A DNA stretch of 64,000 bases, from assembly GCA_016190665.1 (NCBI GenBank), contig JACPQD010000036.1, positions 2,976-66,975 of the forward strand, read 5' to 3'. Position 1 is the stretch's first letter; every line of letters starts with the position of its first letter. The notes below the pieces were generated by a model. That model searched no databases. It had not been told where the DNA came from and worked only from the letters and a program-made list of their open reading frames with translations. Made by a program: the position numbers and the translations under genes. The stretch comes from Chloroflexota bacterium (GTDB lineage: Bacteria; Chloroflexota; Dehalococcoidia; JACPQD01). This document shows positions 1,854-62,183 of this stretch, piece by piece.

Positions 1854-2432
1854 ATGAGCGCTCTTAAGCAACTTGGGGAAACCCGCTTCGTCGAGGTCCT
1901 GGAGCCGGTCTCCGAGTCCAAGACCGTCCGCCGCGAGATAACTTCGCGGCTGGACAGCCTGGACGGCAAGATCGTTGGCTTCCTGGACAACACCAAGCCC
2001 AACGCCGATACCCTGCTATCCGCCGTGGCGGATCTGCTGACCCGAAAGCACCACCTGGCCAATGCGATCCAGGTGCGCAAGGCGCTGGTCATCAAGACGG
2101 CGGGCCCGGAGATCTTCCAGATGCTCACCGAACGCGCGGACGCGGTGGTCACCGCCTCCGGTGACTGAGGGGCCTGTACAACGTGGAGTATCCACGATGC
2201 AGTCGAGATGGAGAAGCGGGGTATCCCCAGCGTCGTCATCTGTACCGACGAGTTCCTCAGCCTGGGCAAGTCCATAGCCGAGTTCCTGGGCATGCCGACG
2301 CTTAAGATCGTCAGCATACCCCACCCGCTGGGCGGCCTGGAGAAAGAGGACGTCCTGAAACGGGCCGAGGTGGCCCACGAGGAGATAGCGGCGGCGCTGA
2401 CAGCCGCGAAATCGGCGGCGAAAGCCAGGTAG
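1854..2432 (+). CDS. UGSC-family selenoprotein, small subunit (Sec at TGA 2166-2168, motif D-U-G-A-C)
   Basis: ORF-track pieces 1728..2168 and 2208..2432 are in one frame, joined by GAC-TGA-GGG-GCC-TGT. RBS GAGGAGG precedes ATG 1854. Hairpin follows the TGA. Length and sequence match the uninterrupted paralogue at 11101. Confidence 0.88.
2182..2196 (+). promoter_or_regulatory. Putative bacterial SECIS hairpin
   Basis: CGUGGA-GUA-UCCACG, a perfect 6-bp stem with a GU-containing loop, 13 nt after the UGA. Confidence 0.75.
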
Positions 2433-2452
2433 GGGCACGGCGTGCCGTGCCC
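2429..2452 (+). repeat. GTAG REP-like palindrome overlapping a stop codon
   Basis: GTAG-GGGCACGGC-GT-GCCGTGCCC. Related copies at 14842, 42424 and 42536. Confidence 0.7.
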
Positions 2453-2579
2453 TAAGGCCAGGGGTTAGGAGTCAGGGGACGGGGGTCGGGGGTCAGCGGC
2501 CGGGAACGAGGGCGCTCGGACTCGTCGGACGCATCCGACCTGTCCGACAGGTCTGACCGATTAACAATCAGGAGAACGT

Positions 2580-3623
2580 ATGGCCACGCAGACGCTGACA
2601 TCGAAAAGACTCAGGATCGAGGACTCATTAGAGGCCATCAATCAGCTTTTCCATGAGAAGGGATGGACGGACGGTCTCCCCATCATCCCTCCCACCGAGG
2701 ACCGCGTGCGGCGCATGCTCACCGGCACGAAGCGCAAGCCGGAGGAGTCGCTCGGTGGCATGCCCCCCAAGTTTGGCGAGGCGACCATCGAGAAGGTCGC
2801 CGTGAACGCGGTCATGGCCGGCTGCCTGCCGGAATATATGCCCATTCTGATTACCGCTGTCGAGGGGATGCTCGACGAGCGCTATCCGCTCTACGGCATG
2901 CAGGCCACCACGCACCCAGCCGCTCCGCTGGCCATCGTCAACGGCCCCATTGTCAAGAAGGTGGGGCTTAACGCCGGCTACGGCCTCTTCGGGCCGGGGT
3001 GGCAGGCAAACGCCACCATCGGGCGCGCCATCAGGCTAATGCTCCTGAATATGGGCGGCGCCACGCCCGGCAAGGTGGACCGCTCCACCATGGGCCAGCC
3101 CTGCAAGTACACTTACTGTGTCGCCGAGAATGAGGATGCCAGCCCCTGGGAGCCCTTGCACGTGGAGCACGGCTTCGCCAAGAACACCTCCACCGTCACC
3201 ATGAGCAGCGGCGAGAACCCTCATAACATCAACGACCATGTGGGCACGAACGCCGAGCACATCCTGGCCATCGCCGCGGGCACGGTGGCCACCATGGGGG
3301 TGAACTTCCCGCTGGTCCCCCTGATGGTCATCTGCCCGGAGCATGCCGCTACCATCGCCAAGGACGGGTTCTCCAAGAACGACGTGAAGCATTTCCTTTT
3401 CGAGCATGCCCGGCTCCCTCTGGGAAAGGCCAGGGCGAGCGGCATGTACGGCCAGGGCATGTGGCCGAAATGGTGGGACAGCAGCGACCCTGAGACCAGC
3501 ATCCCGGTCACCGAAAACTGGGAAGACATAATCATCGTCGTGGCCGGCGGGGCCGGCAAGCACTCCGCCTTCATCGCCACCTTCGGGCACTTCTTCGGCG
3601 CGCTGACGAAGGAGATCAGGTAG
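2580..3623 (+). CDS. UGSC-associated large subunit, uncharacterised
   Basis: Motifs GWTDGLPIIPPT, AVNAVMAGC.PEY.P, ATTH, ANATIGRAIRL. Homologous to 11635 and to the C-terminal part of 60468. Confidence 0.85.
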   Translation: MATQTLTSKRLRIEDSLEAINQLFHEKGWTDGLPIIPPTEDRVRRMLTGTKRKPEESLGGMPPKFGEATIEKVAVNAVMAGCLPEYMPILITAVEGMLDERYPLYGMQATTHPAAPLAIVNGPIVKKVGLNAGYGLFGPGWQANATIGRAIRLMLLNMGGATPGKVDRSTMGQPCKYTYCVAENEDASPWEPLHVEHGFAKNTSTVTMSSGENPHNINDHVGTNAEHILAIAAGTVATMGVNFPLVPLMVICPEHAATIAKDGFSKNDVKHFLFEHARLPLGKARASGMYGQGMWPKWWDSSDPETSIPVTENWEDIIIVVAGGAGKHSAFIATFGHFFGALTKEIR

Positions 3624-3648
3624 GAAGCGAGAAGCGGGAAGCGGGGAT

Positions 3649-4116
3649 ACTACCTATCCAACGCGCAAGCGAATACGACTGGATGCCCATTGTTGCGCGC
3701 AAGTGGGAACCATCTGCTCTGTCACGGCGGCTGTTCGGGAACGGGCGCCTGTTTTCGCCGATCCGGCTGTGGCTTCCGGCGCGGTCCAGGTACTGCGTTC
3801 ACACGCCGAAAGAACGGGGGTCCGCATCTACGGCTTCTGAGTGATGCCTGACCACGTTCATATCGTCCTGGGACCATCGGAGACGTGCGACATCATCACC
3901 TTTGTTGGCCAGTTCAAGAATCTGGCGCAACGCGCGGCCTGGAGCCAGGGTGTCAGAGGCGCCTTCTGGCAGAAGAGGTTCTGGGACCATTTCCTACGGG
4001 TGGAGGAGGACCTCCAACCCGAGGTGGAGTACGTTTTGAACAATCCGGTGAGACGCAAGATGGTGGAGAATTGGAAGGAATACCCATTTTGCGGGTCGTT
4101 GGAGTTCGATTTGTGA
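3649..4116 (+). pseudogene. REP-associated tyrosine (Y1/HUH) transposase, disrupted
   Basis: Frame reads RKRIRLD...RIYGF-TGA(3838)-VMPDHVH...FWQKRFWDH...YVLNNPVR. No start codon is visible upstream. A REP-like hairpin lies at 4145-4174. Confidence 0.75.
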
Positions 4117-4144
4117 GTGATGTTGTGATGCGTCCCCACCCCCC

Positions 4145-4174
4145 GGGCGGCAGGGGACAAGCCCGCTGCCCTAC
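4145..4174 (-). repeat. GTAG REP-like hairpin downstream of RAYT
   Basis: Minus strand reads GTAG-GGCAGCGGG-CTTGT-CCCCTGCC-GCCC. Confidence 0.55.
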
Positions 4175-4207
4175 GGCTGTCGAAACCTGTGAATATGGAG
4201 AACTGAT

Positions 4208-5422
4208 TTGGCACGAGGTCTGTTAGATGGTCTGAAAGTAGTCGAATATGGCAACATGATCTCGGCGCCCTATGCCGGCAAGCTGATGGCCGACATGGGC
4301 GCGGAGGTCATCAAGGTGGAGGACCCCGGCGGGGGCGACGCGTCGCGGCAGCATGGCCCCTTCCCGCAGGACATCCCACACCACGAGAAGAGCGGGCTGT
4401 TCCTCAACCTGAACACCAGCAAACTCGGCATCACTCTGAACGTGAGGGTAAGAACGGGCCGGGAGATCCTGGAGCGTCTTCTCAAAGATGCCGACATCTT
4501 CCTCCACAACCATCCAGCCAGACAGATGAAGGCCCTGGGGCTGGACTACGCTTCCCTCAAAGAACTGAACCCCCGCCTGGTCGTCGCCGGCGTCTCGGCC
4601 TTCGGCGCCACTGGCCCCTATAAGGACTACAAGGGCCAGGCGATCAACTGCTGCGCCTTCAGCGGCGTCTCCGACGAGATGGGCGATCCTGACCGCGAGC
4701 CGCTCAATCTGCCCCTGTCCATCTCCGATTACCAGGCGGCCATGGCCGCCACCTCCGGCATACTGCTGGCCGTCTTCTATCGGGACAGGAGCGGGGAGGG
4801 GCAATTCGTCGACATAGCGGAGGCGGATGTCATGGCGACCATCCAGAGGGAGGGCGTTTGGCCCGCCTATTTCTCGCTTGGCAAGGTGCACAAGCGGGAC
4901 GGACATCGCCGCTCCGGCCACCTTTATCCGCACACCATATTGCCCTGCAAGGATGGCCACATGTGCCTCATCGCCGTCGAGGGACGGCAGTACAAGCGCT
5001 TCATCGAGATCATGGGCAACCCGGAGTGGTCCAACAACCCGAAGTACCGCGACCGCTGGAAGATCTCGGAGGAGTACGCCGACGAGGTGGATGCCTTGCT
5101 CGCCCCCTGGCTCATGGCCCACACCAAACAAGAGATCTTCCAGATCTGTCTGGAAAACCGCATCCCCTTCGCGCCGGTGCGCACTATCGACGAAGTGGTC
5201 AACGATCCGCACCTGAAGGCGCGCCACTTCTTCGCAGAGATAGACCACCCCGAGGCGGGCATGCTGAAATACCCGGGCATGCCTTACCAGTTCTCCAGCA
5301 CCCCTATGCAGGTCAGCCGTCCGGCGCCGATGCTTGGCGAGCACAATGAGTTGGTCTTCTGCGACCGCCTGGGGTACTCAAAGCAAGACCTGGCCGTTAT
5401 GAGACAGGAAGGGGTCATCTGA
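4208..5422 (+). CDS. Family III (CaiB/BaiF) CoA-transferase
   Basis: LDGLKVVEY, ADMGAEVIKVE, catalytic-type Asp in SISDYQAA, GEGQFVDIA, APMLGEHN. Confidence 0.93.
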   Translation: MARGLLDGLKVVEYGNMISAPYAGKLMADMGAEVIKVEDPGGGDASRQHGPFPQDIPHHEKSGLFLNLNTSKLGITLNVRVRTGREILERLLKDADIFLHNHPARQMKALGLDYASLKELNPRLVVAGVSAFGATGPYKDYKGQAINCCAFSGVSDEMGDPDREPLNLPLSISDYQAAMAATSGILLAVFYRDRSGEGQFVDIAEADVMATIQREGVWPAYFSLGKVHKRDGHRRSGHLYPHTILPCKDGHMCLIAVEGRQYKRFIEIMGNPEWSNNPKYRDRWKISEEYADEVDALLAPWLMAHTKQEIFQICLENRIPFAPVRTIDEVVNDPHLKARHFFAEIDHPEAGMLKYPGMPYQFSSTPMQVSRPAPMLGEHNELVFCDRLGYSKQDLAVMRQEGVI

Positions 5423-5471
5423 TTTTCGATTTTTGATTGCTGATTTCTGATTCTTGATTGAGGAGCGCTTG

Positions 5472-6704
5472 ATGAAAGAGCTGCCGCTGACAGGAATACG
5501 AGTAATGGACTTCGGCTGGGTGATGGCGGGTCCCATCCTGGGCCATATGCTGGCCGACATGGGCGCCGAGGTTATCAAGATCGAGTCGCGAGGTCGCGTC
5601 GATGCCTGCCGCCGTGGGCGCCCCATGAAGCGGGAAGACCTGCCCGAAGGGGTCGAGGAGTTCGAGTTGGTGCCCCTCTTCCACCCCTTGAACCGCAACA
5701 AGCTCAGTGCCACGATCAACCTGAGCAACCCGGACTCCGCCTGGCTTCTCCGTGAGCTGGCGAGGAAGACCGACATCATCGTGGAGAACTTCACGCCGGG
5801 CGTCCTGGACAAGGCCGGCCTCAGCTACGAAGAGCTGAAGAAGATCAAGCCGAATATCATTGTCGTTGCCCTCTCCGCCGCCGGGCAATACGGCCCACTG
5901 CGGGATGTGCGCACCTACGCCCCTTCGATCACCAGTTTGGCGGGCATGGACAGCCTCATCGGGTATCCCGGCAAGGGGCCGGTGGGCACCGTCGGCATCA
6001 GCTACGCCGACCCCAACGCGTCCGCCACGGGCATGGTGGCGGTGCTGGCGGCCCTGTACCACCGCAATCGCACCGGCGAGGGCCAATACATCGACCTTCC
6101 CCAGATGGAGGCGGCCACTGCCCTGCTGGGCGAAGCGGTGCTCGACTATACGATGAACGGTCGCGTGACGCGCACCATGGGCAACCTGCACCCGACCATG
6201 GCGCCCCACAACAACTTCCGTTGCCAGGGAGACGACAAGTGGGTCTCCATCGCCGTCAAGACCGAGGAGGAGTGGCGCGGACTGGTGAAAGCCATGGGCA
6301 ATCCGGCCTGGGCCCAAGAGGAGCGCTTCGCCGACGCCTTTCAGCGACGCCGCAACCTGGCCGAGCTGGAGAAGCTCATCGGTGAATGGACGCAGAACTT
6401 CACCAATATCGAGGTCACCGAGAAGCTGCAGAAGGCAGGCGTGGCAGCGGCGCCGGTGATGGACATCGAGGCCGAACTGGCCAACCCCCATATGAAGGCC
6501 CGGGAGGTCTATATCCCCATGGAGCACCCCTACGTGGGGACGGAGCAGATCACCGGCTTCCCCTGGAAGCTGAGCAAGACGCCCGCCCGGCTCCAGCGGC
6601 GCTCGCCACTCATGGGGGAACACAATGACTACGTCTTCAAGACGCTTCTGGACCTTTCGGACGAGAAGATAGCGGAGCTGAAGGCGGCGCAGGTTATCTA
6701 TTAG
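5472..6704 (+). CDS. Family III (CaiB/BaiF) CoA-transferase
   Basis: PLTGIRVMDF, ADMGAEVIKIE, NRNKLS, ENFTPG, SYADPNAS, PLMGEHN. Confidence 0.93.
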   Translation: MKELPLTGIRVMDFGWVMAGPILGHMLADMGAEVIKIESRGRVDACRRGRPMKREDLPEGVEEFELVPLFHPLNRNKLSATINLSNPDSAWLLRELARKTDIIVENFTPGVLDKAGLSYEELKKIKPNIIVVALSAAGQYGPLRDVRTYAPSITSLAGMDSLIGYPGKGPVGTVGISYADPNASATGMVAVLAALYHRNRTGEGQYIDLPQMEAATALLGEAVLDYTMNGRVTRTMGNLHPTMAPHNNFRCQGDDKWVSIAVKTEEEWRGLVKAMGNPAWAQEERFADAFQRRRNLAELEKLIGEWTQNFTNIEVTEKLQKAGVAAAPVMDIEAELANPHMKAREVYIPMEHPYVGTEQITGFPWKLSKTPARLQRRSPLMGEHNDYVFKTLLDLSDEKIAELKAAQVIY

Positions 6705-6740
6705 GCGTGTTTGCGTCAGCAGACGGAGGATAGCGAGCCA

Positions 6741-7343
6741 TTGTCCGTAGAGCATAACGCAGTTGACTGCTCGAAATTCAATCAGGCGGCCGAGTTGCCA
6801 TACGAGTTGCGGTTGCAGGATTTCGAGATGGCCATGCAGGACGTCTATGACTTCTTCTTCGACGTGAACTCGTTTCTGGGAAGAAAAGGCCTGCAAAGAC
6901 TCGACGAGATGCTGCGGCCAGCCATCATGTCCGGCGTTCTGTCGGATATGCTGACGGCGAGTCTAGCAAGACACTCCCGAGTTCTAAGGGAAAACCAATA
7001 TTTCAACGGCCATCCAGACTTGATCGTCCAGGGGATCTACCCGGGCAATGCAGTCAAGGCAGGAACTGAAGGTATCGAGATAAAGACGACCCGGAAATCA
7101 GGAGGCGCGGTGGATACCCACGGCGCCCGGGACCAGTGGATGTGCGTCTTTGTCCATGACTTGGACTCGGAAACTGAACCGGCTTCCGATAGAAAGCCGA
7201 TGAGTTTTACGGAAATCTACCTGGGGAAGGTGACGGTGGACGACTTCAGACGCAATCCTCGCGGCGAGTTGGGGACGCGAACGGCCACGTTGCACCGGGA
7301 CGGCATAAAGAAGCTGCGTGAGAACTGGATATATAGGGTTTAG
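6741..7343 (+). CDS. Putative type II restriction endonuclease (PD-(D/E)xK)
   Basis: HPDL...GIEIKTT motif. Convergent with, and overlapping by 4 nt, a DNA methyltransferase. TTG 6741 follows GGAGGA (ORF track starts at 6711). Confidence 0.65.
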   Translation: MSVEHNAVDCSKFNQAAELPYELRLQDFEMAMQDVYDFFFDVNSFLGRKGLQRLDEMLRPAIMSGVLSDMLTASLARHSRVLRENQYFNGHPDLIVQGIYPGNAVKAGTEGIEIKTTRKSGGAVDTHGARDQWMCVFVHDLDSETEPASDRKPMSFTEIYLGKVTVDDFRRNPRGELGTRTATLHRDGIKKLRENWIYRV

Positions 7344-8488
7344 GTCGAATCCAGCGGTTGAAAGGCGATGAGTTTCGAGATGGCCTCACGAGCCATCTGG
7401 AAGTAATAACTGTCTTTTTCGATGCCGATGCTCCGATACCCGACCGCCTCGGCGGCGGCCAAAGTCGAGCCGGCTCCCGCAAACGGGTCAAGCACCGTCC
7501 CCTCTCCCAGCGGCAGTACGGCGCGCACGAGTCGGCGGAGAAACGCTTGAGGCTTAAGACTTGGGTGGGGTGCAATGGCGCGTTCCTTCTTCTGGGTCGG
7601 GGAAGAGGCAATAACGTCGCCGAAGGGTCTGCTCGGAGAGTCACGGCGGAAGCCGCCCGTCTTCCATTTTCGCAGGTTGTCTTGAACTCGCCCCTCAATG
7701 GGTTTCCGGAAAAGGACCCAGGGCTCCCACATCGACCTGGGCATGACACTCACATTCTCGAATTCCCTATGGGCGGCTTTCGGGCGGTCTCCCCCCCGCA
7801 TTGTCATGACAAGCCGCATGATCTCGCCGCGCCGTTCCAGTCCCGCGTCGGCAAGGGCGCCTGAAACGATATATGACAGCAGAGGATTCGATGCTAAGAC
7901 CACGTTCGCCCCGGGCACAAGCTTTGGAAGCAGAAGCCGCGCCCAGACAAAGAAGAAGACGCGCAACTGCTCTCTTTGCTCGTCCGTCAACACCGTGAAT
8001 CTGGGCAGCGGCGATCTGACGTGCCCATCAAAGGCGGGAGGTATGCGCCACACCCCTCCTTTTCCGTTGCGAAGCTTGAGTTGTTGGTCAGGTGTGTATT
8101 CATGAAGACCATAGGGAGGGTCTGTCACTACAGCATGGATGCTGTTGTCCTCTTGCTTCTCCAGCCAATCGAAGCAATCGGCGTGGAATAGCGTAGCTTT
8201 GCCCATCGTGAAGGGTTCTGACCAGTCTGAAGATAGCGGCAATTCCCGTGGTACGCCGCCCGAGTACACGGTACTGACGCTGTAAATGCCACGGTTTTCT
8301 CGAACAAATAGGCCGGGAGTGTTGAGTACCAAGTATGATCGGATGGACGAAGCGGGAGTCGGCCCCATAACCGCGCGCACCCTGTTTTCGATCTGCTTGA
8401 CAGAAAGCGGCTGGGAAGTTAATCTGAGGACTTGAAGGATGGCATCCCTGACCCGGCCGGGCGGATATCTAGGTTCTTTTTGACTCAT
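7340..8488 (-). CDS. Beta-class N4-C/N6-A DNA methyltransferase with N-terminal winged-helix-like domain
   Basis: Motif IV DPPY precedes motif I DPFAGAGST; HPSLKP is present. About 75 extra N-terminal residues look HTH-like. Confidence 0.9.
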   Translation of the reverse strand: MSQKEPRYPPGRVRDAILQVLRLTSQPLSVKQIENRVRAVMGPTPASSIRSYLVLNTPGLFVRENRGIYSVSTVYSGGVPRELPLSSDWSEPFTMGKATLFHADCFDWLEKQEDNSIHAVVTDPPYGLHEYTPDQQLKLRNGKGGVWRIPPAFDGHVRSPLPRFTVLTDEQREQLRVFFFVWARLLLPKLVPGANVVLASNPLLSYIVSGALADAGLERRGEIMRLVMTMRGGDRPKAAHREFENVSVMPRSMWEPWVLFRKPIEGRVQDNLRKWKTGGFRRDSPSRPFGDVIASSPTQKKERAIAPHPSLKPQAFLRRLVRAVLPLGEGTVLDPFAGAGSTLAAAEAVGYRSIGIEKDSYYFQMAREAISKLIAFQPLDST

Positions 8489-8494
8489 ACGGGC

Positions 8495-8523
8495 AGTATA
8501 GACGTCCAGACGTCAAATGTCAA
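8495..8523 (-). promoter_or_regulatory. Sigma70-type promoter for a leaderless MTase mRNA, with two GACGTC sites in the spacer
   Basis: Minus strand TTGACA-tttGACGTCtgGACGTC(17 nt)-TATACT-gcccgt-ATG. Confidence 0.75.
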
Positions 8524-8565
8524 CTGTCGTGGTCTGTGCACTCTCGAAAATCGGTTGTTTAGATA

Positions 8566-8637
8566 CCGCGCACTCAAGTACGCGGTATAGGCTGCTTCAA
8601 GAGCGTGTCCAGCATGCCCCGTACTTTAGTGCGGGGT
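8566..8637. repeat. Paired inverted palindrome element (REPIN-like), copy 1
   Basis: CCGCGCACTCAAGTACGCGG ... CCCCGTACTTTAGTGCGGGG. Similar element at 12739-12811. Confidence 0.65.
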
Positions 8638-8677
8638 CAGAGAAGCGAAGCATTTGGCATTCAAGGAGGCTTCAGAA

Positions 8678-9832
8678 TTGGCGCTAGTAGAGACAAGATA
8701 TCCAGCACTAACGGACCAGAGCCTCGCCGAGGCGCGCAAGCTCATCGGCGTGAGGCTGCGGCGCGGCCGGCCCTGGAACCGAGCGGCCACCAAGGACAAC
8801 GTCAAGGCCTTCGTGAAGGCAGTGGGCTCGCGCAATCCCCTTTATCTCTCTCCCACGTATGCGGAAACCTCGGGGCCTTACGGCTGCCTTGTGGCTCCGG
8901 GCACCTTCCTGTATTCTATGGATGACACCCTCATCGGCCCCGGTCTTCCCGGCATCCACATGATCTTCGCTGCGGGCGACTGGGAGTTCTACGATGTTAT
9001 CCGCGTCAACGATGAGATCGAGGCGACGGCGACCCTGGTGGACGCCTGGGAGAAGAACGGTCGCTTCTGCGGCCGCATGATCTTTCAGAAGGGCGAGGTC
9101 ATTTACCGCACCCAGTACGGCAAGATCGTGGCCCGCTGCTTCTCCACCGTAGCCCGGACGCCTCGGGATGCGGCGCGGCAGGAAGGCAAGTACGCTTCCG
9201 TCACGAAGTACAGCTACACGGATACGGAGCTGAAGATCATCGGCGACGGGCTGGACGGCGAGGAGATCCGCGGCAGCCGCGTGCGCTACTGGGAGGACGT
9301 GAAGGAGGGCGATAAGCTGACGCCCGTCGTCAAGAACGGCCTCACCTCCGAGGACATGATCTGCTTCGTCGATTCGGTGAAAGGGGTGAAGACCTTCGCT
9401 GTCGCCCGGGAGCACCGGCGGAAGCATCCGGCGGACCTCTGGATCGATCCCAATACCGGCATGCCTGATTCCTGGGAGGGCTCCTGGCTCAAGGACAATA
9501 CCGCCCAGGAGTTCGGCTGGCCCGCCGCCCATGATACCGGCTATCAACGCATCTGCTATCTGGACAACCTGCTGACCAACTGGGCCGGCGACTACGGCTT
9601 CGTCACCAGGCTAGGCGCCAAAGTGCTCCTGCCCGCCATCTACGGCGATACCCAGTGGTGCAAGGGCAGGGTGACCGGAAAGCACATCGATGAGCGGAAG
9701 CGACACCTGGTGGATATGGACGTCTGGTGCGAGAACCAGCGCAGCGAGATCACGGCCCAAGGTTACGCCACCGTGGCGCTGGCCACCAGAGACCTCGATA
9801 CGGGCATCTCAGTTTACGGCGAGGAGGCATAG
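8678..9832 (+). CDS. Double hotdog-fold (MaoC/FAS1-like) acyl-CoA dehydratase
   Basis: GSRNPLY, LVAPGTFL, RYWEDVKEGD, GDTQWCKGRVTGK, VWCENQR. TTG start after AAGGAGG. Confidence 0.85.
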   Translation: MALVETRYPALTDQSLAEARKLIGVRLRRGRPWNRAATKDNVKAFVKAVGSRNPLYLSPTYAETSGPYGCLVAPGTFLYSMDDTLIGPGLPGIHMIFAAGDWEFYDVIRVNDEIEATATLVDAWEKNGRFCGRMIFQKGEVIYRTQYGKIVARCFSTVARTPRDAARQEGKYASVTKYSYTDTELKIIGDGLDGEEIRGSRVRYWEDVKEGDKLTPVVKNGLTSEDMICFVDSVKGVKTFAVAREHRRKHPADLWIDPNTGMPDSWEGSWLKDNTAQEFGWPAAHDTGYQRICYLDNLLTNWAGDYGFVTRLGAKVLLPAIYGDTQWCKGRVTGKHIDERKRHLVDMDVWCENQRSEITAQGYATVALATRDLDTGISVYGEEA

Positions 9833-9833
9833 G

Positions 9834-10958
9834 ATGGTGCTGGGCAAGATTACCGATGAAGGCGTAGCCGATCTGAGGAGCCGCATCGGCTCCTACTATA
9901 GAGTGGACAGGCCCATTGAGGTGGCCACCAGAGACGCCATCTACCATTTTGTGAATAGCCTCGGCGATCGAAATCCCCTTTACGTGGACGACAACTACGC
10001 TCGAACGACCCGCTACGGCTGCATCGTCGCGCCGCCCTGTTTCATGACCATGGTGCAGCACGTCAGCGGACTGAAAGTGGGGGGTCTGCCCGGTGTGCAC
10101 ACCTTCCATTCCGGCAGCGACTGGACATGGTACCGCGCCGCCCGCGTCAACGATGTCATCGCCTGCACCTTCCGGCCCGTGGAGGTGAGGGACCGGCCGA
10201 GCGAGTTCGCTAACCGGCTGGTTATCTCCTACGCCGAGTCCATCTACCGCAACCAGAGGGGCGAGAAGATCGCGCGTAACCGGGGCTGGAGCATCCGCAC
10301 CGAGCGCCAGACAGCCAAAGAGAAGGGCAAGTACAAGGACGTAGTGAAGCCCAAGTACACGCCGGAGCAGCTTCAGGCCATCTGGGACGCCTACGACAAG
10401 GAGGAGATTCGGGGCGCCGTGCCGCGCTACTGGGAGGATGTGAAGGAGGGCGAGGAGATAACGCCGGTGGTCAAAGGACCCTGGCGCATGATCGATATCG
10501 CCCTGGGGAGCATCAGCCTCACCGGCAACGAGGGCGGGCACATCTATTCCATCCTGCAGCGCCGCCGCCACCCCGCCGACTCCTACGTCGATCCCAGCAC
10601 CGGCCTGGATGACCAGCCGCACCGGGGCCACTGGGAGGACTTCATGGCCCACCAGATCGGCGTGCCGGGGGCCTACGACCTGGGCTACCATCGCATCGCC
10701 TGCCTGTCCACTCCGATGATGAACTGGGTGGGCGACGACGGCCACGTGAAGAAGCTCTACGGCGAGGTCCGGCGCTTCAACGTCGAGGGCGACACGCAGT
10801 GGTTCAAGGCCAAAGTGACCAGAAAGTACGTCGAGGGCAGGGAGCATCTGGTGGACTGCGAGGTCTGGGCCGTCAACCAGAACGACATCATTACCACCCC
10901 CGGCCGCGCCACGGTGGTGCTGCCCTCGCGGAGCGAGGAGTACGTGGTGCCGTGCTAA
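9834..10958 (+). CDS. Double hotdog-fold (MaoC/FAS1-like) acyl-CoA dehydratase
   Basis: GDRNPLYVD..YAR, IVAPPCF, RYWEDVKEGE, GDTQWFKAKV. ATG lies 1 nt after the upstream stop, with RBS GAGGAGG. Confidence 0.85.
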   Translation: MVLGKITDEGVADLRSRIGSYYRVDRPIEVATRDAIYHFVNSLGDRNPLYVDDNYARTTRYGCIVAPPCFMTMVQHVSGLKVGGLPGVHTFHSGSDWTWYRAARVNDVIACTFRPVEVRDRPSEFANRLVISYAESIYRNQRGEKIARNRGWSIRTERQTAKEKGKYKDVVKPKYTPEQLQAIWDAYDKEEIRGAVPRYWEDVKEGEEITPVVKGPWRMIDIALGSISLTGNEGGHIYSILQRRRHPADSYVDPSTGLDDQPHRGHWEDFMAHQIGVPGAYDLGYHRIACLSTPMMNWVGDDGHVKKLYGEVRRFNVEGDTQWFKAKVTRKYVEGREHLVDCEVWAVNQNDIITTPGRATVVLPSRSEEYVVPC

Positions 10959-11100
10959 GAAGCTAACCTCTCCCTAAATCCCTCCCCGTGCCGGGAGGGA
11001 CTTCTCCCCCTTCCCGAAGCGGGAAGGGGGTCAGGGGGTTAGGTTGAACCGCCCCAAGTGCAAATGAGCGTATCTGGCGCTCCACTCACAGGAGGTAATC

Positions 11101-11631
11101 ATGTCTATCATCAACGTCCTGGACCCTCGGGGCGAGCTTCTGGAGAAGCCCAAGAAGCTCGCGCCCCGAGTCAGCAGCCTCAAGGGCAAGGTGGTCGGTC
11201 TCATATCCAGCGGCTCGGGGAACAGCACCGAGTTCATGACGCGGCTGGGCGAGCTCCTGGTGGAGAAGGAGGGCGTGGCCGAAGCCATCATGCGCATAAA
11301 GGTGTCGCTGGCTTTGCCACTCCCGGAGGCGCAGACGACGGAGTTGCACCGACGGTGCCAGGCTATCATCGTCGGCGTGGGTGTGGGCGGCTCCAATGCC
11401 CTATCGCTCGTTGTCGATGCGGTCAATGCGGAGATGGCGGGCATGCCCGGCGTCGTCATTGTGGGCCACGAGTTCGAGAAGCTCACCAAGGCCAAGATCC
11501 GCAATATGGCCTTCCCCACCCTCGACTACGTGGTGGTGCCCAGTCCCATGGGCACGGCCGAGCAGGCCCACGACAAAGCCGCCACGGCGCTGCCCGACGT
11601 CGTCGCTATCATCACGAAGGGTCGGAGGTAA
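11101..11631 (+). CDS. UGSC-family small subunit lacking the U/C-x-x-C motif
   Basis: Aligns to 1854 (SSLKGKVVGL, E..G.P.V, P.L..V.VPSPMG) but reads GVGV-GGSN where the paralogues have UGAC/UGSC. Confidence 0.8.
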   Translation: MSIINVLDPRGELLEKPKKLAPRVSSLKGKVVGLISSGSGNSTEFMTRLGELLVEKEGVAEAIMRIKVSLALPLPEAQTTELHRRCQAIIVGVGVGGSNALSLVVDAVNAEMAGMPGVVIVGHEFEKLTKAKIRNMAFPTLDYVVVPSPMGTAEQAHDKAATALPDVVAIITKGRR

Positions 11632-11634
11632 GAG

Positions 11635-12717
11635 ATGGCCAGGTCGAGATCGAAGAAGGTCCGCGTTTCCACCGACTCCTTCCAGGCCGCCCTGGATACG
11701 ATCGAACTGTACTTCAAGAAGGGCTGGACGGACGGCCTTCCCATCGTGCCGCCCACGGAAGCCAATGTTCAGGCCATGCTGAAAGGCACGAAGCGCCAGC
11801 CCAACGAGGTCATCGGGGTCGTCCCGCCCCGGATGGGCATCGCCACCGTCGAGGCGATCGCCGTTAATGCCGTCATGGCGGGCTGCCTGCCCGCGTATCT
11901 GCCCGTTATCATCGCTTCCGTTCAAGCCATGCTGGATGATAAGTTCAACCTGAACGGCGTGCAGGGCACCACCCACGCGGCCACGCCGCTGGCAATCGTT
12001 AGCGGCCCCGTGTGCAAGAAGCTGGGCATCAATGGCCGCGTTAACGTCTTCGGCTCCGGCTTCCGCGCCAACGCCACCATCGGGCGGGCCATCCGGCTTA
12101 TCCTGTATAATATCGGTGGCGGCGTCCCCGACGAGGGCGACCAGTCTTCGCTGGGCAACCCGGGCAAGTACAGCTTCTGCATCGCGGAGAACACCGCCGA
12201 GAGCCCCTGGGAGCCGCTCCACGTGGAGCGCGGCCTGCGGGCTCGCGATAGCGGTGTCACTATGTTCGCCTGCGAGGCGCCGCACCACATCGGCGGCGGC
12301 CTGCCCGCCTGCGCCGAGCATCTGGCTGCGCCCGGGAGCAGTAGCACGGCTGGAACTCAAGGTGAGGTACTCGTGGTGGTGGGAACGCTGGTGGCGGAGA
12401 GGCTCGCCCGGTACGGGTGGTCAAAGAGGGACGTCAAGGAGTATATCTATAATACGGCCCGGGGGCGCCCCATCGGAGCATCGAAGCTTGGAAGAGACGT
12501 GGCCGAGCCGCTTCAGATCGTGGACGTGGTGCAGGGAGTACCTGACGCGGGGCCGAAATGGATCGACACCGTCGACCCCACCTTCCTGGCCCCCATCGTC
12601 AAAGACGTGGACAGCATCCATGTCATCGTGGCGGGAACGCGGGCCTGGCCCTGGTGCGCCGTCCTCCCCGGCTGGAGCGATTACTCCTTCGCCGTAACGA
12701 AGAAGATTGAGGGGTAG
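11635..12717 (+). CDS. UGSC-associated large subunit, uncharacterised
   Basis: GWTDGLPIVPPT, AVNAVMAGC, GTTH, RANATIGRAIRL, GNPGKYSFCIAEN. Confidence 0.85.
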   Translation: MARSRSKKVRVSTDSFQAALDTIELYFKKGWTDGLPIVPPTEANVQAMLKGTKRQPNEVIGVVPPRMGIATVEAIAVNAVMAGCLPAYLPVIIASVQAMLDDKFNLNGVQGTTHAATPLAIVSGPVCKKLGINGRVNVFGSGFRANATIGRAIRLILYNIGGGVPDEGDQSSLGNPGKYSFCIAENTAESPWEPLHVERGLRARDSGVTMFACEAPHHIGGGLPACAEHLAAPGSSSTAGTQGEVLVVVGTLVAERLARYGWSKRDVKEYIYNTARGRPIGASKLGRDVAEPLQIVDVVQGVPDAGPKWIDTVDPTFLAPIVKDVDSIHVIVAGTRAWPWCAVLPGWSDYSFAVTKKIEG

Positions 12718-12738
12718 CTTGAAGCGGGCGCGAAGACA

Positions 12739-12811
12739 CCGCGCACTGAAGTACGCGGGATAGGCGCGTTCAGTAGCCCTTGCCCACCATACCGCGTACT
12801 TTAGTGCGCGG
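12739..12811. repeat. Paired inverted palindrome element (REPIN-like), copy 2
   Basis: CCGCGCACTGAAGTACGCGG ... CCGCGTACTTTAGTGCGCGG. Confidence 0.65.
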
Positions 12812-13165
12812 TAGGAGAAGCCATCAGCTTTCGGCGAAGGGGACGGGATTCTAGCCACGAAATACACAAGAGACACGAAAATAATTTGGATGTTTTAGTG
12901 TATTTCGTGGTCGATCAGGGAATTCGGGGAAGGGGAGGTTTCATCATTCATCATTGGTATGAAAATAGCAATTCGCACACACACCTTTCAGCGGTTCCCT
13001 GCTGAAGGGCTGGGTCTGACAAGTCTGACAGGTCCGACTCGTCCGACGGCGAGCAAGAAGAAGAGGTAGCACGCAAGCAAGAGGTTTGTTGTTGGTCACA
13101 GGTCCTGGTTACCAGGCTGATAGCTGATCGCTGAAAGCTAACGGCTATTCAAAAGGAGGTCACCC

Positions 13166-16783: not shown

Positions 16784-16794
16784 GGGATCGAACG

Positions 16795-45180: not shown

Positions 45181-45181
45181 C

Positions 45182-57168: not shown

Positions 57169-57330
57169 TGGGTACAGATTTCGAGTGAGTTACCTGTTGC
57201 CTGCATGTGTTCATAAATGTGTTATAATTGTGTGCCATGTGGATCAAGTAACTCCACTGTACAGCCTGCTGAACGAAATGGCCGCCGCGGTCAAAACCGC
57301 GCCAATTCCGGCGGCACTGGCGGGAGGGAA

Positions 57331-60300
57331 ATGAGACAGCTCTTTGACACCCTGCGCGTCCAACTAGTCCTTCTTGTCATTCTGGCGCTCATGCCCGCCC
57401 TCTTCCTGGCCGTGTATACCGCCGCCGCAACGCGCAACCACGAGGTCTTTGAGGCGCGACGTGACGCAGTGCGTCACGCCCGCCAGATAGCTCAGAACCA
57501 CGCTGACTCCGTAGCCGACACCCGCGACCTCCTTCTCACCTTGCCGCTGCTCCGGCCCGTGCGCGAGGCGGATAGCGGCGCCTGCAACAATCTCTTCCCC
57601 AATCTTCTCAAGCAGCTTACCCGTTATGTCAATCTGGGAGTCGCCACGGCGAACGGCCAGCTCTTTTGCAGCAGCGTCCCCGTCACAGCACCCGTCAACC
57701 TGAGCGACGCCACCTACTTCCGGCGCGCCCTGGACAGCCGCACCTTCGCCGCCAGCGACTACCACATCGATCGAGTTACCGGCAAACCGGCGATGGTCCT
57801 CGCCTACCCCTTCCCGGACGAGGGCGCACCGGCAGGCGTGGTATTCGCCGCGCTGGATCTGGAGTACCTGAGCCAAATGCCGCCCGACGCCGAGTTGCCC
57901 AGGGGTGCGGAGGTAACGATAGTCCATCGCAATGGATCCGTTGTCGCCCATTGGCCAGATCCCCAGCTCTGGATAGGCCAGAGAATGGGGGACACGCCCG
58001 TCATCAAAACGATCCTCGCACAGAAGGAAGGCATAGCCGAAGCTGCTGGGCTGGATGGCGTTCCGCGCCTGTTTGCCTTCGCCCCGCTGGGCGATGCTTC
58101 TGAGCTCTACGTAAGCGTAGGCATTCCGACGGAAGCCCTTTTCGCCGAGGCTGACCGCGGCCTGGTTAATAGCCTCGGAATCCTGGCGTTCGTCGGCGTG
58201 GTCGTGTTGGGGCTGGCCCTGACGGGGAGCGACCTCCTCGTGCTGCGCCGGGTGAAGAAACTGGTGAGGGCGGCGACGCGGCTCGGAGCGGGCAATCTCG
58301 ATGCCCGCACCGGCCTCTCCTACCAGGCGGGAGAGCTGGGGCAACTGGCCCACACCTTCGACGAAATGGCCACGCAGCTTCAGCGACGGGAGGCGGAGCG
58401 TCAGGCCGCAGAGGAGACGCTCCGCGCCAGCCAGGAGCGCTACCGCACCTTGATCGAGGCTTCTCCTGATGCCATAGTTGTCGCTGACCTCACGGGGTCT
58501 CCCATTCTGGCCAACCAGAAGGCCGCGACTATGGTGGGAAATAGCAACGCCGCGGAAGTCATAGGCAGGCCCATGACAGATTTCTTCGCCCCGGACGACC
58601 GCGACCGGGCCCAGGAGGTTCTGCGGCAGACGATAGATTTGGGGGAAGTGAGAGATTTCAATATCGATCTCCAGAGAGAAGGCGACGGGGCGACGCCGGT
58701 CGAGATCAATACCGCCCTGATGCGGGATGCTGGGGGGAACCCGCGAGGCTTGCTGGCCATAATTCGGGATGTGACGGAGCGCAGAGAGGCAGAAGAGCGG
58801 GTCCGCGTTGAGGCCGAGCGCACCGCGGCCCTGGTTCGGAGCGCAGCGCGTTTGAACGCCCGCCTGGACATGGACGCCGTGTTGAGCGCTATCTGCGAAG
58901 AAGCGGCGCTAGCCCTGAAAGTCCCGGTGACCTCAGTCTCCCTCTACGACCCCGCAGACGGCGCCCTCCATCTGGTCGAGGCCCACGGCGCGCCACTTGA
59001 TATCTTGAGGCAACTGTCGCCCATACCACGGAGCACCTTCGAAAGAGACGCCAACGAAAGAGGCAAAGTCTTCGTCATCCCGGACTTGGAAGCCCTGCCC
59101 GACCGGTTGGACAGCGCGTTCCCCGCGGAACTACAGGCGCGAACCCTTGCCCTGGCCACCATCGCGAGGGACGACCATCTCATCGGCGCCCTGACCGCCG
59201 TATGCCTGAAGCAGCCCCGCGTCTTCAGCAACAACGAACTGGCGCTGTTGCAGGGCCTGGCTGATCAAGCGGCCCAGGCCATTGCCAATGCCCGTATGGC
59301 TGAGCGGACCAGCCGCCACCTCAAACGGCTGCAGGCTCTTCACACTATCGACATGGCCATAACAAGCAGCCTGGACTTGCGCGTTACCTTGAACGTCTTG
59401 CTGGACCAGGCTACAACACAATTAGGGGCCGACGCCGCCAACGTTCTAATGCTGGAACCGCACACGAATACCCTGGAATATGCCGCCGGACGCGGCTTCC
59501 GCAGCGCGGCTCTAGAACACACACGTTTGCGCCTTGGCCGCGGGCCGTCCGGACGCGCGGCCTTCGAGCGCCGCATTATCAGCGTCCCCAGCCTGGATGC
59601 AGACCCGGAGGCCGCCTCCCTGGCTTCACTGGTGGCGAGCGAGGGGTTTGTCACCTGTTACTCCTCTCCCCTGATTGCCAAGGGCAATGTTAAGGGCGTG
59701 CTGGAACTATTCAAGCGGGTCCCCTTTGAACCCGACGACGAGTGGACGCAATTTCTCGAGGCGCTCTCTACTCAAGCTGCTATCGCGATTGACAACGCCG
59801 GCCTCTTCGATGGTTTGCAGCGCTCTAACGTCGAACTCACCCTTGCCTATGACAACACTCTCGAAGGTTGGTCGCGGGCCCTGGACCTGCGGGACGAGGA
59901 GACCGAAGGCCATTCGCGACGGGTCACGGATATGACTGTCCGGTTGGCGGAGGCCATGGGAATCAGTTGGGAGCAGATGGTTCACGTGCGCCGGGGCGCG
60001 CTTCTGCATGATATAGGTAAGATGGGTATCCCCGACACGATCCTGCTGAAGCCAGGACCGCTGACAAACGAAGAGTGGACGGTTATGCGCCGTCACCCGG
60101 TCCTCGCTCACGAACTCCTGTCGCCCATACCTTTCTTGCGACCCGCTCTGCCCATCCCCTACTGCCATCATGAGAAGTGGGACGGCACAGGCTATCCACG
60201 CGGCCTGAAGGGCGAGCAAATCCCCCTGGAGGCCCGCGTCTTTGCTCTCGTAGACGTGTGCGATGCGCTGGCCTCCGAGCGACCTTACCGGGCCGCCTGG

Positions 60301-60399
60301 CCCTCCGAACTTATCCATGATTACCTTCGCTCCCAGTCCAGGTTGCACTTTGACCCCGCTGTTGTCGATAAGTTCTTCGTTCTCAATTCGCCCTCTTGA
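57331..60399 (+). CDS. HD-GYP phosphodiesterase with dCache, HAMP, PAS and two GAF domains
   Basis: Two TM helices around a Cache domain, ELGQLA..FDEM, PAS ..RDVTER, GAFs, HSRRV, LLHDIGK, HHEKWDGTGYP. Confidence 0.93.
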   Translation: MRQLFDTLRVQLVLLVILALMPALFLAVYTAAATRNHEVFEARRDAVRHARQIAQNHADSVADTRDLLLTLPLLRPVREADSGACNNLFPNLLKQLTRYVNLGVATANGQLFCSSVPVTAPVNLSDATYFRRALDSRTFAASDYHIDRVTGKPAMVLAYPFPDEGAPAGVVFAALDLEYLSQMPPDAELPRGAEVTIVHRNGSVVAHWPDPQLWIGQRMGDTPVIKTILAQKEGIAEAAGLDGVPRLFAFAPLGDASELYVSVGIPTEALFAEADRGLVNSLGILAFVGVVVLGLALTGSDLLVLRRVKKLVRAATRLGAGNLDARTGLSYQAGELGQLAHTFDEMATQLQRREAERQAAEETLRASQERYRTLIEASPDAIVVADLTGSPILANQKAATMVGNSNAAEVIGRPMTDFFAPDDRDRAQEVLRQTIDLGEVRDFNIDLQREGDGATPVEINTALMRDAGGNPRGLLAIIRDVTERREAEERVRVEAERTAALVRSAARLNARLDMDAVLSAICEEAALALKVPVTSVSLYDPADGALHLVEAHGAPLDILRQLSPIPRSTFERDANERGKVFVIPDLEALPDRLDSAFPAELQARTLALATIARDDHLIGALTAVCLKQPRVFSNNELALLQGLADQAAQAIANARMAERTSRHLKRLQALHTIDMAITSSLDLRVTLNVLLDQATTQLGADAANVLMLEPHTNTLEYAAGRGFRSAALEHTRLRLGRGPSGRAAFERRIISVPSLDADPEAASLASLVASEGFVTCYSSPLIAKGNVKGVLELFKRVPFEPDDEWTQFLEALSTQAAIAIDNAGLFDGLQRSNVELTLAYDNTLEGWSRALDLRDEETEGHSRRVTDMTVRLAEAMGISWEQMVHVRRGALLHDIGKMGIPDTILLKPGPLTNEEWTVMRRHPVLAHELLSPIPFLRPALPIPYCHHEKWDGTGYPRGLKGEQIPLEARVFALVDVCDALASERPYRAAWPSELIHDYLRSQSRLHFDPAVVDKFFVLNSPS

Positions 60400-60467
60400 C
60401 ACCCTCCCCTCAAGAATGATAGCATTCTGCCATTCCAGTAGAAGACCAACATTGAAGGGATTACCGA

Positions 60468-62183
60468 ATGTCAGAACCGGTTTATGAGGTTGTGTGGCCC
60501 CTGGGCAAATCGGTCTATGAGACCCTACCCCTCGCGCCTCGCAGCGACGACCTGAGCGGCAAGACCGTCTGCGAGCTCTGGGACTGGCTCTTCCGCGGGG
60601 AGGAGATCTTCCCCATCTTGCGAGAGGCCCTGGCCAGGCGGTACTCCGGCATCAAGTTCGCCGACTATAACATCTTCGGCAACACTCATAGCGCCCGGGA
60701 GAAGGCCATCATCAGCGAACTTCCCAGGCTGCTGCGCGAACGTCAATGCGATGCTGTCATCTCCGCTGTGGGCGCCTGAGGGAGCTGCACGCCCGCCGTG
60801 GTGCGGGCCAGCGCCGTGGCTGAACGGGCCGGCGTCCGGAGCGTCTCTATCGCCGCCTCCGGATTCGTGCAGCAAGGGCGCGCTGTGGCCAAAGCCCTGG
60901 GCGCGGAGAATATAGCTATCGCTGAATATCCCGGCGTCATCATGCTCGACAGCAAAGAGGAACTGCGCCGCAAGGTCGAAGAGGTCCTCGTCGATAGGGT
61001 TGTCAACGGCCTGACCACGTCGGTGGCCGACGCGGCGAGGCCCGTGGAGCCGGGCCCACGCGACATTGTCTTCAAGGGCGCGTTGCCGGAAGTCCTCGAG
61101 CTTTTCTACAAGAATATGTGGACCGAGGGCCTCCCCATCGTCCCGCCGACGCTGGACCTGATCGAGAAGTTCCTCAGGTTCACCGACAGGTCCCCTGACG
61201 AGGTCCTGGGCGTCTTGTTGCCGGAGAACCGTCAGGCCACCATCTGGAATGTGGCTGTTAATGGCGTCATGGCCGGTTGCCGCCCAGAGTACATGCCCGT
61301 CCTCATCGCCGTTGTCGAGGCCATCGCCGACCCGGAATTCCGCATCGAGGACGCAGGCAGCACCCCCGGCTGGGAGCCGCTCATCATCCTCAGCGGGCCG
61401 ATTATCAAGCAGTTGGACTTCAACAGCGGGTCGGGCGTCATGCGGGTGGGGCGTCAGGCCAACACCAGCGTTGGACGTTTTCTCCGCCTATATATGCGGA
61501 ATATCCCCGGACTGCGGATTGCGCCGGGGGCCACGGACAAGGGTAGCATCGCCTATACTTTCAACGTCGTCCTGGCAGAGAACGAGGATGCCGTGGCCGA
61601 GATGGGCTGGCTGCCCTTCAGCGTCGACCGCGGCTTCAAGGCTGGGGATAACGTGGTTACCGTGCAAAGCTGCATCAACATCAGTCCCCCCTGCTACAGC
61701 GGCGGCAGCACCGCCGAGGAACATCTGAAGACCATCGCGGAGATAATCGGGCAGCGCTCCATGGCCTTCTGGACGGCCTTCGCCGCCCATTACACCAAAC
61801 ATTCGCCGCTGTTCGTCCTGGGGCCCAGCGTGGCCCACGTGATCGCCCGGGATGGCTGGACGAAGGACGCCATCCGGCGGTATCTTTATGACAACGTAAA
61901 GGCCCAGGCGGGCTGGCTGGAGGACCTGGCCCACCAGGCGGGCCCCTCCATCTTCAGCTTCTGCAAATGCGTGGAGGAAGGGACCATCTCGCCGGATTTC
62001 TGCCGTTCGACCGATCTGAACCGGCTGGTGCCCGTGTTCCTTAAGCCGGAGTGGATCAACATCGTCGTCAGCGGCGACCCGGGCCGGAACCAGAGCAAAG
62101 GATATGTGCAGAACCAGAAGCAGGGCTGGCCGGTGAGCAAGAAGATTGCGCTGCCCAGGAACTGGGAGCGGATGATAGCCTAG
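60468..62183 (+). CDS. UGSC-family selenoprotein fused to its large partner domain (Sec at TGA 60777-60779)
   Basis: ORFs 60468..60779 and 60798..62183 are in frame: GCC-TGA-GGG-AGC-TGC = A-U-G-S-C. Later WTEGLPIVPPT and AVNGVMAGCRPEY. Confidence 0.9.
60784..60812 (+). promoter_or_regulatory. Putative bacterial SECIS hairpin
   Basis: GCUG-cac-GCCCGC-CGUGGU-GCGGGC-CAGC; the upper stem starts 11 nt after the UGA. Confidence 0.75.

Follow-up and report, generated by a model that had tools for sequence, protein, structure and literature searches.

Introduction

UGSC proteins (PF24696, NF041046; Zhang and Gladyshev 2007/2008) have been recorded as single, scattered genes without a known function. 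A 2026 review (PMC13188914), in its treatment of selenoprotein families, lists UGSC among those of unknown function, assigns no reaction to it, and states that it has ranked with the most common selenoprotein families of aquatic metagenomes since 2007-2008. According to the passages of the 2008 paper that deal with the family, an ocean survey yielded 255 selenocysteine (Sec) forms of UGSC against 21 cysteine homologues. The largest bacterial selenoproteomes given in the corresponding section of the review comprise 57 genes (Olavius Delta 1 symbiont) and 63 genes (a metagenome-assembled genome, MAG, of Methylomirabilota), spread over many families; Table 2 of BSepDB, which covers 57,630 selenoproteins from 16,621 species, is also topped by 63 and has two Dehalococcoidia, with 49 and 46 genes, in its top ten (PMC13326102). 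Here we analyze a 64,000-nucleotide (nt) stretch (hereafter referred to as the window) of contig JACPQD010000036.1 from a Chloroflexota bacterium of the class Dehalococcoidia (assembly GCA_016190665.1), in which a UGSC domain is paired three times with a partner domain of about 350 amino acids. The source genome, a 5.0-Mb MAG of 107 contigs with 96.6% completeness, contains 190 UGSC domains, of which 180 have a Sec codon; these codons, all from a single family, amount to about three times the largest selenoproteome given in those sources.

Selenoprotein B of the GrdB/PrdB type (PF07355; TIGR01917, TIGR01918, TIGR04483) belongs to two-part enzymes in which the other polypeptide binds the substrate. 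Enzymes of this type are re-reduced by thiols. What is new in the present case is the size of the expansion, the total lack of Cys forms, a genome-wide tie to genes for family-5 solute-binding proteins (SBPs), an alignment of Sec on Sec with GrdB/PrdB, and fusions of the partner domain to thioredoxin-reductase-type proteins in other organisms. Whereas UGSC has so far been known from single genes, here it comes with a defined partner, defined neighbors and a likely electron donor.

Three UGSC modules in the window

Translation and family searches located the three modules where a first-pass annotation of the window, made from the sequence alone, had placed them (1854/2580, 11101/11635 and 60468). 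The first module is split. Its small subunit, encoded at 1854–2432 (+ strand; 192 amino acids; PF24696), has an in-frame TGA at 2166–2168 that would be read as the U of D-U-G-A-C, and its large partner, P0003 (2580–3623, +; 347 amino acids), features the motifs WTDGLP, AVNAVMAGC, ANATIGRA and YCVAENE. The second module, also split, consists of the small subunit P0002 (11101–11631, +; 176 amino acids; PF24696) and the large partner P0004 (11635–12717, +; 360 amino acids), whose gene starts 4 nt past the stop codon of the P0002 gene. P0004 is 46% identical to P0003 and includes WTDGLP, AVNAVMAGC and ANATIGRA. P0002 has no internal stop and reads G-V-G-G-S-N at the position of the Sec motif, without Sec, Cys or the U-G-x-C feature. 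The first-pass annotation had called this copy redox-dead, which is correct for the UxxC pair but not for the module as a whole, as P0004 retains the MAGC cysteine and a second conserved cysteine. In the third module the two parts are fused in a single frame of 571 amino acids (P0001; 60468–62183, +; PF24696), with only one TGA (60777–60779), giving A-U-G-S-C.

All three small parts exceed the Pfam cut-off for PF24696 (25 bits), with 178.9 bits for the 1854 copy, 108.5 for P0002 and 99.4 for P0001, where the match covers residues 7–183. The cut-off of NF041046 (125 bits) was passed by the 1854 copy only (151.1 bits; 77 for P0002 and 60.4 for P0001). The large partners P0003 and P0004 matched no family in Pfam or NCBIfam.

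Copy number and architecture in the genome

We translated the genome in six frames with TGA read through and searched it with profiles made from the window's own three modules. This profile search detected 190 UGSC domains and 197 partner domains, far above the three in the window, and confirms the first-pass proposal that the family is expanded. The first genome search listed 150 UGSC matches of 208 candidates, none of them below 82 bits and almost every one with a single in-frame TGA; 150 partner matches were listed of 203 candidates. The Sec column of the 190 copies contains U in 180, always encoded by TGA, and Cys in none, while seven copies have lost both redox residues and three are fragments. 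The motif of the 180 U-containing copies is UGSC in 70, UGGC in 37, UGAC in 35, UGTC in 29, UGNC in four and UGLC in two, with UGVC, UGDC and UGTU occurring once each. The seven copies lacking U and C read SGVY (twice), SGVW, SGVT, AGVT, QGVT and GGSN (once each). The UGTU copy is a fused module (C101:30937–31443, −) that has two TGA codons three residues apart, and would give a Sec-x-x-Sec pair instead of Sec-x-x-Cys.

The small and the large domain share one frame in 132 copies, with the small domain first in 128 and exactly one U in 118. A further 51 copies are adjacent split genes, arranged small to large in 33 cases and large to small in 18, and the remaining lone or fragmentary domains number seven small and 18 large. 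On a FastTree phylogeny of 186 full-length partner domains, the fused or split state changes at least 11 times, and the Sec or non-Sec state at least four times. The one-frame and adjacent-gene copies, the repeated changes of state and the predicted structure of the fused protein (see below) together indicate that the two parts belong together. The first-pass annotation had drawn this conclusion from the fused gene, as a Rosetta-stone argument; the argument is sound but not new, since a UGSC/'Unknown_1' fusion is already named in the 2008 paper. 'Unknown_1' is probably our partner domain. The recurrence of the same architecture about 190 times, with TGA in one column 180 times, is far beyond chance.

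For 121 fused genes, identity to the best paralogue is at most 89.7%, with 72.7% as the median. As every fused pair stays below 90% identity, the count is not inflated by strain duplicates. Modules occur on 51 of the 107 contigs, which represent 69% of the bases and have a G+C content of 60.5%, compared with 61.0% in the rest; the modules themselves occupy 5.9% of the genome bases. The subfamily of the 60468 fused gene includes 32 paralogues that are 66–75% identical to P0001 and located on many different contigs. It looks like a recent dispersed burst, not a tandem array.

Signature of selenocysteine insertion

The genome contains selA and selB (contig 84) as well as selD (C56:50475–51407, +), which itself has one in-frame TGA and would thus encode a Sec-containing selenophosphate synthetase. 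A stem of at least six uninterrupted base pairs (bp) starting 7–18 nt after the TGA is present in 144 of the 180 copies, compared with 21 of 180 upstream control windows, and the mean folding energy is −17.1 kcal/mol downstream of the TGA and −11.6 kcal/mol upstream of it. The stem sequences vary by subfamily (GCCCGC/GCGGGC, CGTGGA/TCCACG, CCGCG/CGCGG). Both U-G-x-C copies of the window have a predicted hairpin resembling a selenocysteine insertion sequence (SECIS). That of the 1854 gene (2182–2196, +) has a 6-bp stem and a GUA loop and starts 14 nt after the TGA, and that of the fused gene (60791–60808, +) has a 6-bp GCCCGC/GCGGGC stem and a CGUGGU loop and starts 12 nt after it. The latter hairpin recurs within the subfamily of the fused gene.

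UGSC modules in related genomes

We sampled 300 other genomes of the same class, the class being the closest level of relationship available. UGSC matches were found in 113 of them, a tally that includes one match in an unpublished genome (G243). The first-look candidate count was 207 for the present genome, as against 50 at most among the listed 113 matching class genomes. TGA-containing UGSC genes occur in these relatives, up to 46 per genome; second in rank is G034 (2.7 Mb), with 46 scored UGSC matches. Its tRNA-Sec gene (C114:18137–18230) lies 1.5 kb from a UGSC gene (C114:16143–16634). Our genome resembles published large selenoproteomes in class membership, Dehalococcoidia being among the top ten of BSepDB, and resembles the ocean survey in the predominance of Sec forms. 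It differs in that 190 UGSC domains, none of them with Cys, occur in one genome. The full-text literature on selenoproteomes and selenoproteins of Chloroflexota, SAR202 and Dehalococcoidia, with most subscription journals outside its scope, gave no report of such an expansion.

The partner family is itself large, with 6,038 clusters at 50% identity (E ≤ 1e-3; 3,997 at E ≤ 1e-10). Close relatives of the partner were found in records titled Chloroflexota/Dehalococcoidia, SAR202, delta proteobacteria, Binatia, Myxococcota, Acidimicrobiia, Burkholderiales, Streptomycetaceae, Dormiibacterota and Entotheonella. They extend to a cultured isolate, Bacillus sp. 1P10SD, which has selA (556.8 bits) and a fused G-D-U-G-S-C gene on its chromosome; three UGSC genes with one TGA each lie there within 27 kb (~3.283–3.310 Mb). 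One of these genes is a fusion that also encodes the partner and some 80 additional C-terminal amino acids with C-L-D-C.

Relation to GrdB/PrdB and to thioredoxin reductase

The NCBIfam models for GrdB, GrdF, GrdH and PrdB match the Sec region of UGSC with E values from 1.4e-6 to 3e-3, at scores far below the family cut-offs (27.5 vs 602.2 bits for TIGR01917; 23.1 vs 65.45 bits for TIGR01918). Apart from the UGSC family, the genome has two GRDB-family (PF07355) genes in which an in-frame TGA gives U-P-x-C, one at C9 ~215,280–215,657 (−; T-T-U-P-V-C) and the other at C71 ~101,721–102,119 (−; P-A-U-P-L-C). Both are probable PrdB/GrdB-like selenoproteins. When the UGSC profile was aligned with them by hhalign, one protein gave a probability of 80% (E 1.3e-5), with U-G-s-C placed on U-P-V-C, and the other only 14.5%; the partner profile gave 0.2% and 0.7%. 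The NCBIfam matches and the 80% alignment, where Sec coincides with Sec and the resolving Cys with Cys, show that UGSC and the Sec-bearing domain of selenoprotein B are distant homologues. As in GrdB/PrdB, the substrate may be bound by the other part of a two-part enzyme. The two systems differ in the motif (U-P-x-C in the GRDB-family genes of this genome, U-G-x-C in UGSC) and in the partner, which is unrelated to the N-terminal part of GrdB.

The partner domain has a second kind of fusion. We considered longer relatives of the partner, 120 of which were listed out of 321 at E ≤ 1e-20. Among these 120, 68 have UGSC, 33 have Pyr_redox_2/Pyr_redox, 16 have no further domain and three have other domains (AMP-binding, CoA_transf_3 and nitroreductase, respectively). 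Several of the Pyr_redox fusions are named thioredoxin reductase by their source. In one of them, P0012, the partner domain (residues 1–342; 47% identical to P0003) is followed by a flavoprotein part (residues 363–639) containing C-A-D-C in the place of the redox-active C-x-x-C of thioredoxin reductase. Because they constitute a second Rosetta stone, the fusions of partner and flavoprotein point to an NAD(P)H-driven reductase. The likeness to low-molecular-weight thioredoxin reductase systems consists in this natural fusion; the difference is that the flavoprotein would be unfused in the present genome.

Predicted structure and conserved residues

An AlphaFold2 model of the fused P0001, based on an alignment of 49 paralogues, had a mean predicted local distance difference test score (pLDDT) of 91.3 and a predicted template modeling score (pTM) of 0.90, with the Sec between a strand (96–102) and a helix (107–120). 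A model of the partner alone (P0003), based on 41 sequences with other phyla included, had a pLDDT of 89.9 and a pTM of 0.91. Foldseek searches of the PDB with the fused and the partner-only models gave no match at E ≤ 1e-3. The UGSC domain is weakly flavodoxin-like, its nearest folds being quinone reductase 2, azoreductase and the flavodoxin domain of flavorubredoxin (E about 1e-3; template modeling (TM) scores normalized to the target of 0.35–0.40), and a phmmer search with the fused protein matched thioredoxin with an E value of 0.29. The best fold matches of the partner, namely class I fumarate hydratase, amidohydrolases of the Toblerone fold and RidA, all had TM scores below 0.3. No solved relative of the partner was detected by phmmer of the fused protein or by a profile search of PDB sequences, Pfam assigned no family to 28 partner members, and an Atlas search returned only unnamed or automatically named clusters for the relatives. 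The possibility raised in the first-pass annotation, that the family might be an already characterized enzyme, was therefore not borne out by the PDB, Pfam or NCBIfam searches.

The near-invariant positions of the partner part, in P0001 numbering, are W218, D220, G221, N265, M268, G270, C271, N332, R337, R340, E371, E373 and K466. Of 186 partner domains, 175 have the MAGC cysteine and 111 a second one (Y-C-[VI]-A-E-N-E); the latter is found in 55 of 58 split forms but only 46 of 118 fused forms. Copies without U and C still have both partner cysteines. The first-pass annotation had asked whether U/C lies near the MAGC cysteine. Because some Sec-bearing copies lack this cysteine, a fixed relay to it from Sec is unlikely to be general, and we rejected the MAGC cysteine as a universal relay partner of Sec.

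Modeling of an interaction between the subunits, which the first-pass annotation had also called for, was carried out for the split non-Sec pair P0004 and P0002, with our own alignments and no like complex having been solved. The predicted complex had an ipSAE of 0.55, compared with 0.00 for the best of three controls; at least 74% of the contacts agreed between runs and the partner pLDDT was at least 88. Of 80 solved complexes, 58 attain the ipSAE mark, as do two of 110 mismatched pairs; passes at 0.60 or below include only seven of the 80 solved complexes and both of the passing mismatches. As there is no solved relative, the pass does not reflect a known structure. The model predicts an interface and hints that the split subunits may bind, but it adds little to what the gene fusions and the pTM of P0001 already indicate.

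Association with solute-binding protein genes

We then considered the genes around the modules, using a crude set of 3871 open reading frames (ORFs) chosen by length and codon-position G+C. Proteins encoded within 5 kb of a module were clustered against all ORFs, and cluster representatives were assigned by Pfam. Of the 352 members of the SBP_bac_5 cluster, 209 are encoded no more than 5 kb from a module (odds 7.2, p 2e-62). Enrichment was also found for 2-hydroxyacid dehydrogenase (10 of 15; odds 7.6, p 2e-4), LysR (10 of 19; odds 4.2, p 0.002) and MmgE/PrpD (17 of 45; odds 2.3, p 0.009). Two other neighbors proposed in the first-pass annotation fared differently: CoA_transf_3 is mildly enriched (24 of 64; odds 2.3, p 0.003), whereas MaoC-like proteins are not (7 of 30; odds 1.1, p 0.82).

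A profile search raised the number of SBP_bac_5 ORFs to 372, or 12.1% of the genome, and 221 of the 372 have a lipobox-like motif. SBP_bac_5 is the first non-module gene on either side in 137 of 187 full-length modules, with SBPs making up 10% of the non-module genes, and 178 of 181 such SBP neighbors are on the same strand as the module. This substantiates the tie that the first-pass annotation had suggested from the window. The association recurs in G034: of its 45 UGSC genes, 17 have an SBP_bac_5 match no more than 3 kb away, where a naive estimate would predict 14% at most. By comparison, the ATP-binding cassette permease cluster seeded from module neighbors (BPD_transp_1) has only 24 members. 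Because about 372 SBPs face 24 members of the permease cluster, many binding proteins would share a few transporters.

Each module of the window has an SBP_bac_5 gene nearby. The 3′ part of one, cut by the window start, lies at 2–649 (+; PF00496 E 1.8e-13, profile positions 224–352), and between it and the first module is a gene of the Peptidase_M19 (membrane dipeptidase) family (713–1786, +; PF01244 E 6.6e-82). A second SBP_bac_5 gene lies downstream of the second module (13166–14845, +; PF00496 E 6e-77) and a third downstream of the fused module (62284–63999, +; PF00496 E 1.1e-71); the latter runs off the window end, and the start noted earlier for it (62368) falls within this frame. There are also two CoA_transf_3 genes, the first of them downstream of the first module (4208–5422, +; PF02515 E 2.3e-105; and 5454–6704, +; PF02515 E 5.1e-103), and two MaoC-like (FAS1_DH_region) dehydratase ORFs are located upstream of the second module (8654–9832 and 9690–10958, +; PF13452 E 4.2e-12 and 1.2e-15). 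No permease was found among the ten ORFs scanned, out of those at 1–15,000 and 62,284–63,999.

A proposed function and its alternatives

We favor, with modest confidence, the interpretation that the modules are NAD(P)H-driven selenoenzymes which, via a thioredoxin-reductase-type flavoprotein, reduce imported small organic compounds. Each module would be one cytoplasmic two-part selenoenzyme. Its UGSC part would be a flavodoxin-like domain, distantly related to the Sec domain of protein B, that bears the catalytic Sec-x-x-Cys, and the part of about 350 amino acids, whose fold has no solved relative, would hold the substrate. The Sec would attack and reduce a small organic substrate, leaving an Se-S bond, which the flavoprotein would re-reduce with NAD(P)H, either directly or through a thiol relay. 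Because about 190 diverged modules lie mostly beside family-5 SBP genes, the majority in the same orientation as an adjacent gene of apparent lipoprotein type, the likely role is an initial reduction, as the first step on a large variety of imported compounds.

Several observations weigh against this interpretation. The GrdB-like similarity is confined to the Sec domain, with the partner unrelated, and the conserved partner cysteines seem dispensable in some Sec-bearing subfamilies. A tblastn search of the genome gave nothing close to the fused flavoprotein part (best E 0.001), and we therefore assume that the electron donor acts in trans. The support from the complex prediction for the split pair is weak. 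As for the neighborhood, 50 of the 187 modules do not have an SBP gene as their nearest neighbor. Moreover, module similarity does not predict the similarity of adjacent SBPs (Mantel r 0.05 upstream and 0.09 downstream, inside the permutation range), and the best-hit concordance of modules and SBPs is 8 of 51 upstream and 1 of 46 downstream. Co-duplication of modules with adjacent SBPs was not supported, and simple matched pairs of module and SBP are disfavored because the similarities are not congruent; the first-pass description of the enzymes as substrate-specific thus goes beyond what the neighboring SBPs support. On the side of Sec insertion, the two window hairpins are singly no better than shuffles (z −0.26 at 2182 and −0.33 at 60791), single-sequence folding statistics being uninformative for the SECIS hairpins in this G+C-rich DNA. 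The contamination of the MAG is estimated at 6.1%. Finally, no tRNA-Sec gene was found in the assembly by ARAGORN at default and loosened thresholds, by a whole-genome search with RF01852 (the best match, at 43.1 bits, is tRNA-Ser GCU), by inspection of the surroundings of selA, selB and selD, or by nhmmer with a profile from the tRNA-Sec genes of five relatives. Two ARAGORN oddities (C64:35146 and C15:25097) were rejected as tRNA-Sec, having no Rfam match. All five relatives of the class that were examined have the gene (66–72 bits), and in the present genome it has presumably been left out of the assembly.

The missing tRNA-Sec gene and the contamination estimate would also fit an artefactual count, in which the TGA codons are true stops of truncated genes or pseudogenes, or the bin mixes several organisms. 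TGA also serves as an ordinary stop codon here, at the end of 1408 of the 3871 crude ORFs and of 27 among 123 models of fused genes. We nevertheless regard an artefact as very improbable, in view of the TGA in one alignment column of 180 of the 190 copies, with protein conservation on both sides of it and never a Cys codon in its place, the hairpin at a fixed place after it, and the presence of selA, selB and a selD that itself appears to encode Sec. In addition, near-identical copies are absent, the modules are spread over 69% of the assembly at uniform G+C, and class relatives have TGA-containing UGSC genes of their own. If the proteins are real, they might still be general thiol or selenol oxidoreductases, similar to thioredoxin or peroxiredoxin, that reduce protein disulfides or detoxify peroxides or sulfoxides and have no catabolic role. 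Such a role would fit the UxxC motif, a typical feature of redox proteins, as well as the fusions between the partner and flavoproteins of the thioredoxin reductase type. Automatic naming in Atlas has produced labels such as 'thioredoxin family protein' for relatives, and the 2008 paper, in its passages on the family, judged the fold likely to be thioredoxin-like. We consider such a function quite unlikely, however, as a housekeeping role leaves both the approximately 190 diverged copies and their same-strand adjacency to SBP genes unexplained, the best fold matches of the small domain are flavodoxin-like rather than thioredoxin-like, and its thioredoxin sequence match is poor.

Another alternative is a specific form of the interpretation that we favor, namely that the modules are Stickland-type reductases which, like the glycine, sarcosine, betaine and D-proline reductases, cleave a C-N or other C-heteroatom bond beside a carboxyl group, the substrates being peptide-like compounds or N-substituted amino acids taken up via family-5 SBPs. 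Such SBPs typically bind peptides and related compounds, a dipeptidase gene stands between the SBP gene and the first module, and the near-invariant R337 and R340 of the partner could bind a carboxylate. The alignment with a GRDB-family selenoprotein, in which both Sec and Cys are matched by their counterparts, and the location of the GrdB, GrdF, GrdH and PrdB matches on the Sec region, argue in the same direction. On the other hand, the scores remain far under the GrdB/PrdB cut-offs, the partner is unlike the N-terminal part of GrdB, and the MAGC cysteine is modeled in a short loop just before a helix, which is an unusual setting for a self-cleavage site. On balance, this narrower version seems improbable to us.

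An NAD(P)H-driven reductase acting on imported organics, if widely deployed, could be part of an undescribed selenium-based lifestyle, in which about 190 diverged Sec reductases, together with some 370 binding proteins that deliver to a small number of common transporters, give access to dissolved organic compounds of very great variety. We think it rather doubtful that this broad picture is correct. Within it, a much expanded reductive metabolism of the Stickland kind would possibly use the organics as electron acceptors; growth would then depend heavily on selenium, and UGSC would be a main route by which organic matter is turned over in all places where the family abounds. Whatever the substrates, the genome changes the scale on which the function of UGSC has to be considered, as the modules take up 5.9% of the DNA and SBP genes about another 12%. 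It also offers handles on that function, including a fixed partner domain with confident models both alone and fused, a probable electron donor that suggests an NADPH-linked assay, SBPs whose ligands could hint at the substrates, and a cultured Bacillus with selA and three TGA-containing UGSC genes.

Other genes in the window

A sensor protein of 1060 amino acids (dCache-HAMP-PAS-GAF-HD) is encoded at 57217–60399 (+), ending 69 nt before the fused module on the same strand. Elsewhere, at 25973–33752 (+), the gene for a 1455-amino-acid Eco57I-type methylase with DUF7008 overlaps that for a 1203-amino-acid protein with PLD and SNF2-helicase domains, and an N6_N4 DNA methylase gene is located at 7340–8488 (−). 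The 25973–33752 region and the 7340–8488 gene probably represent a restriction or defense island.

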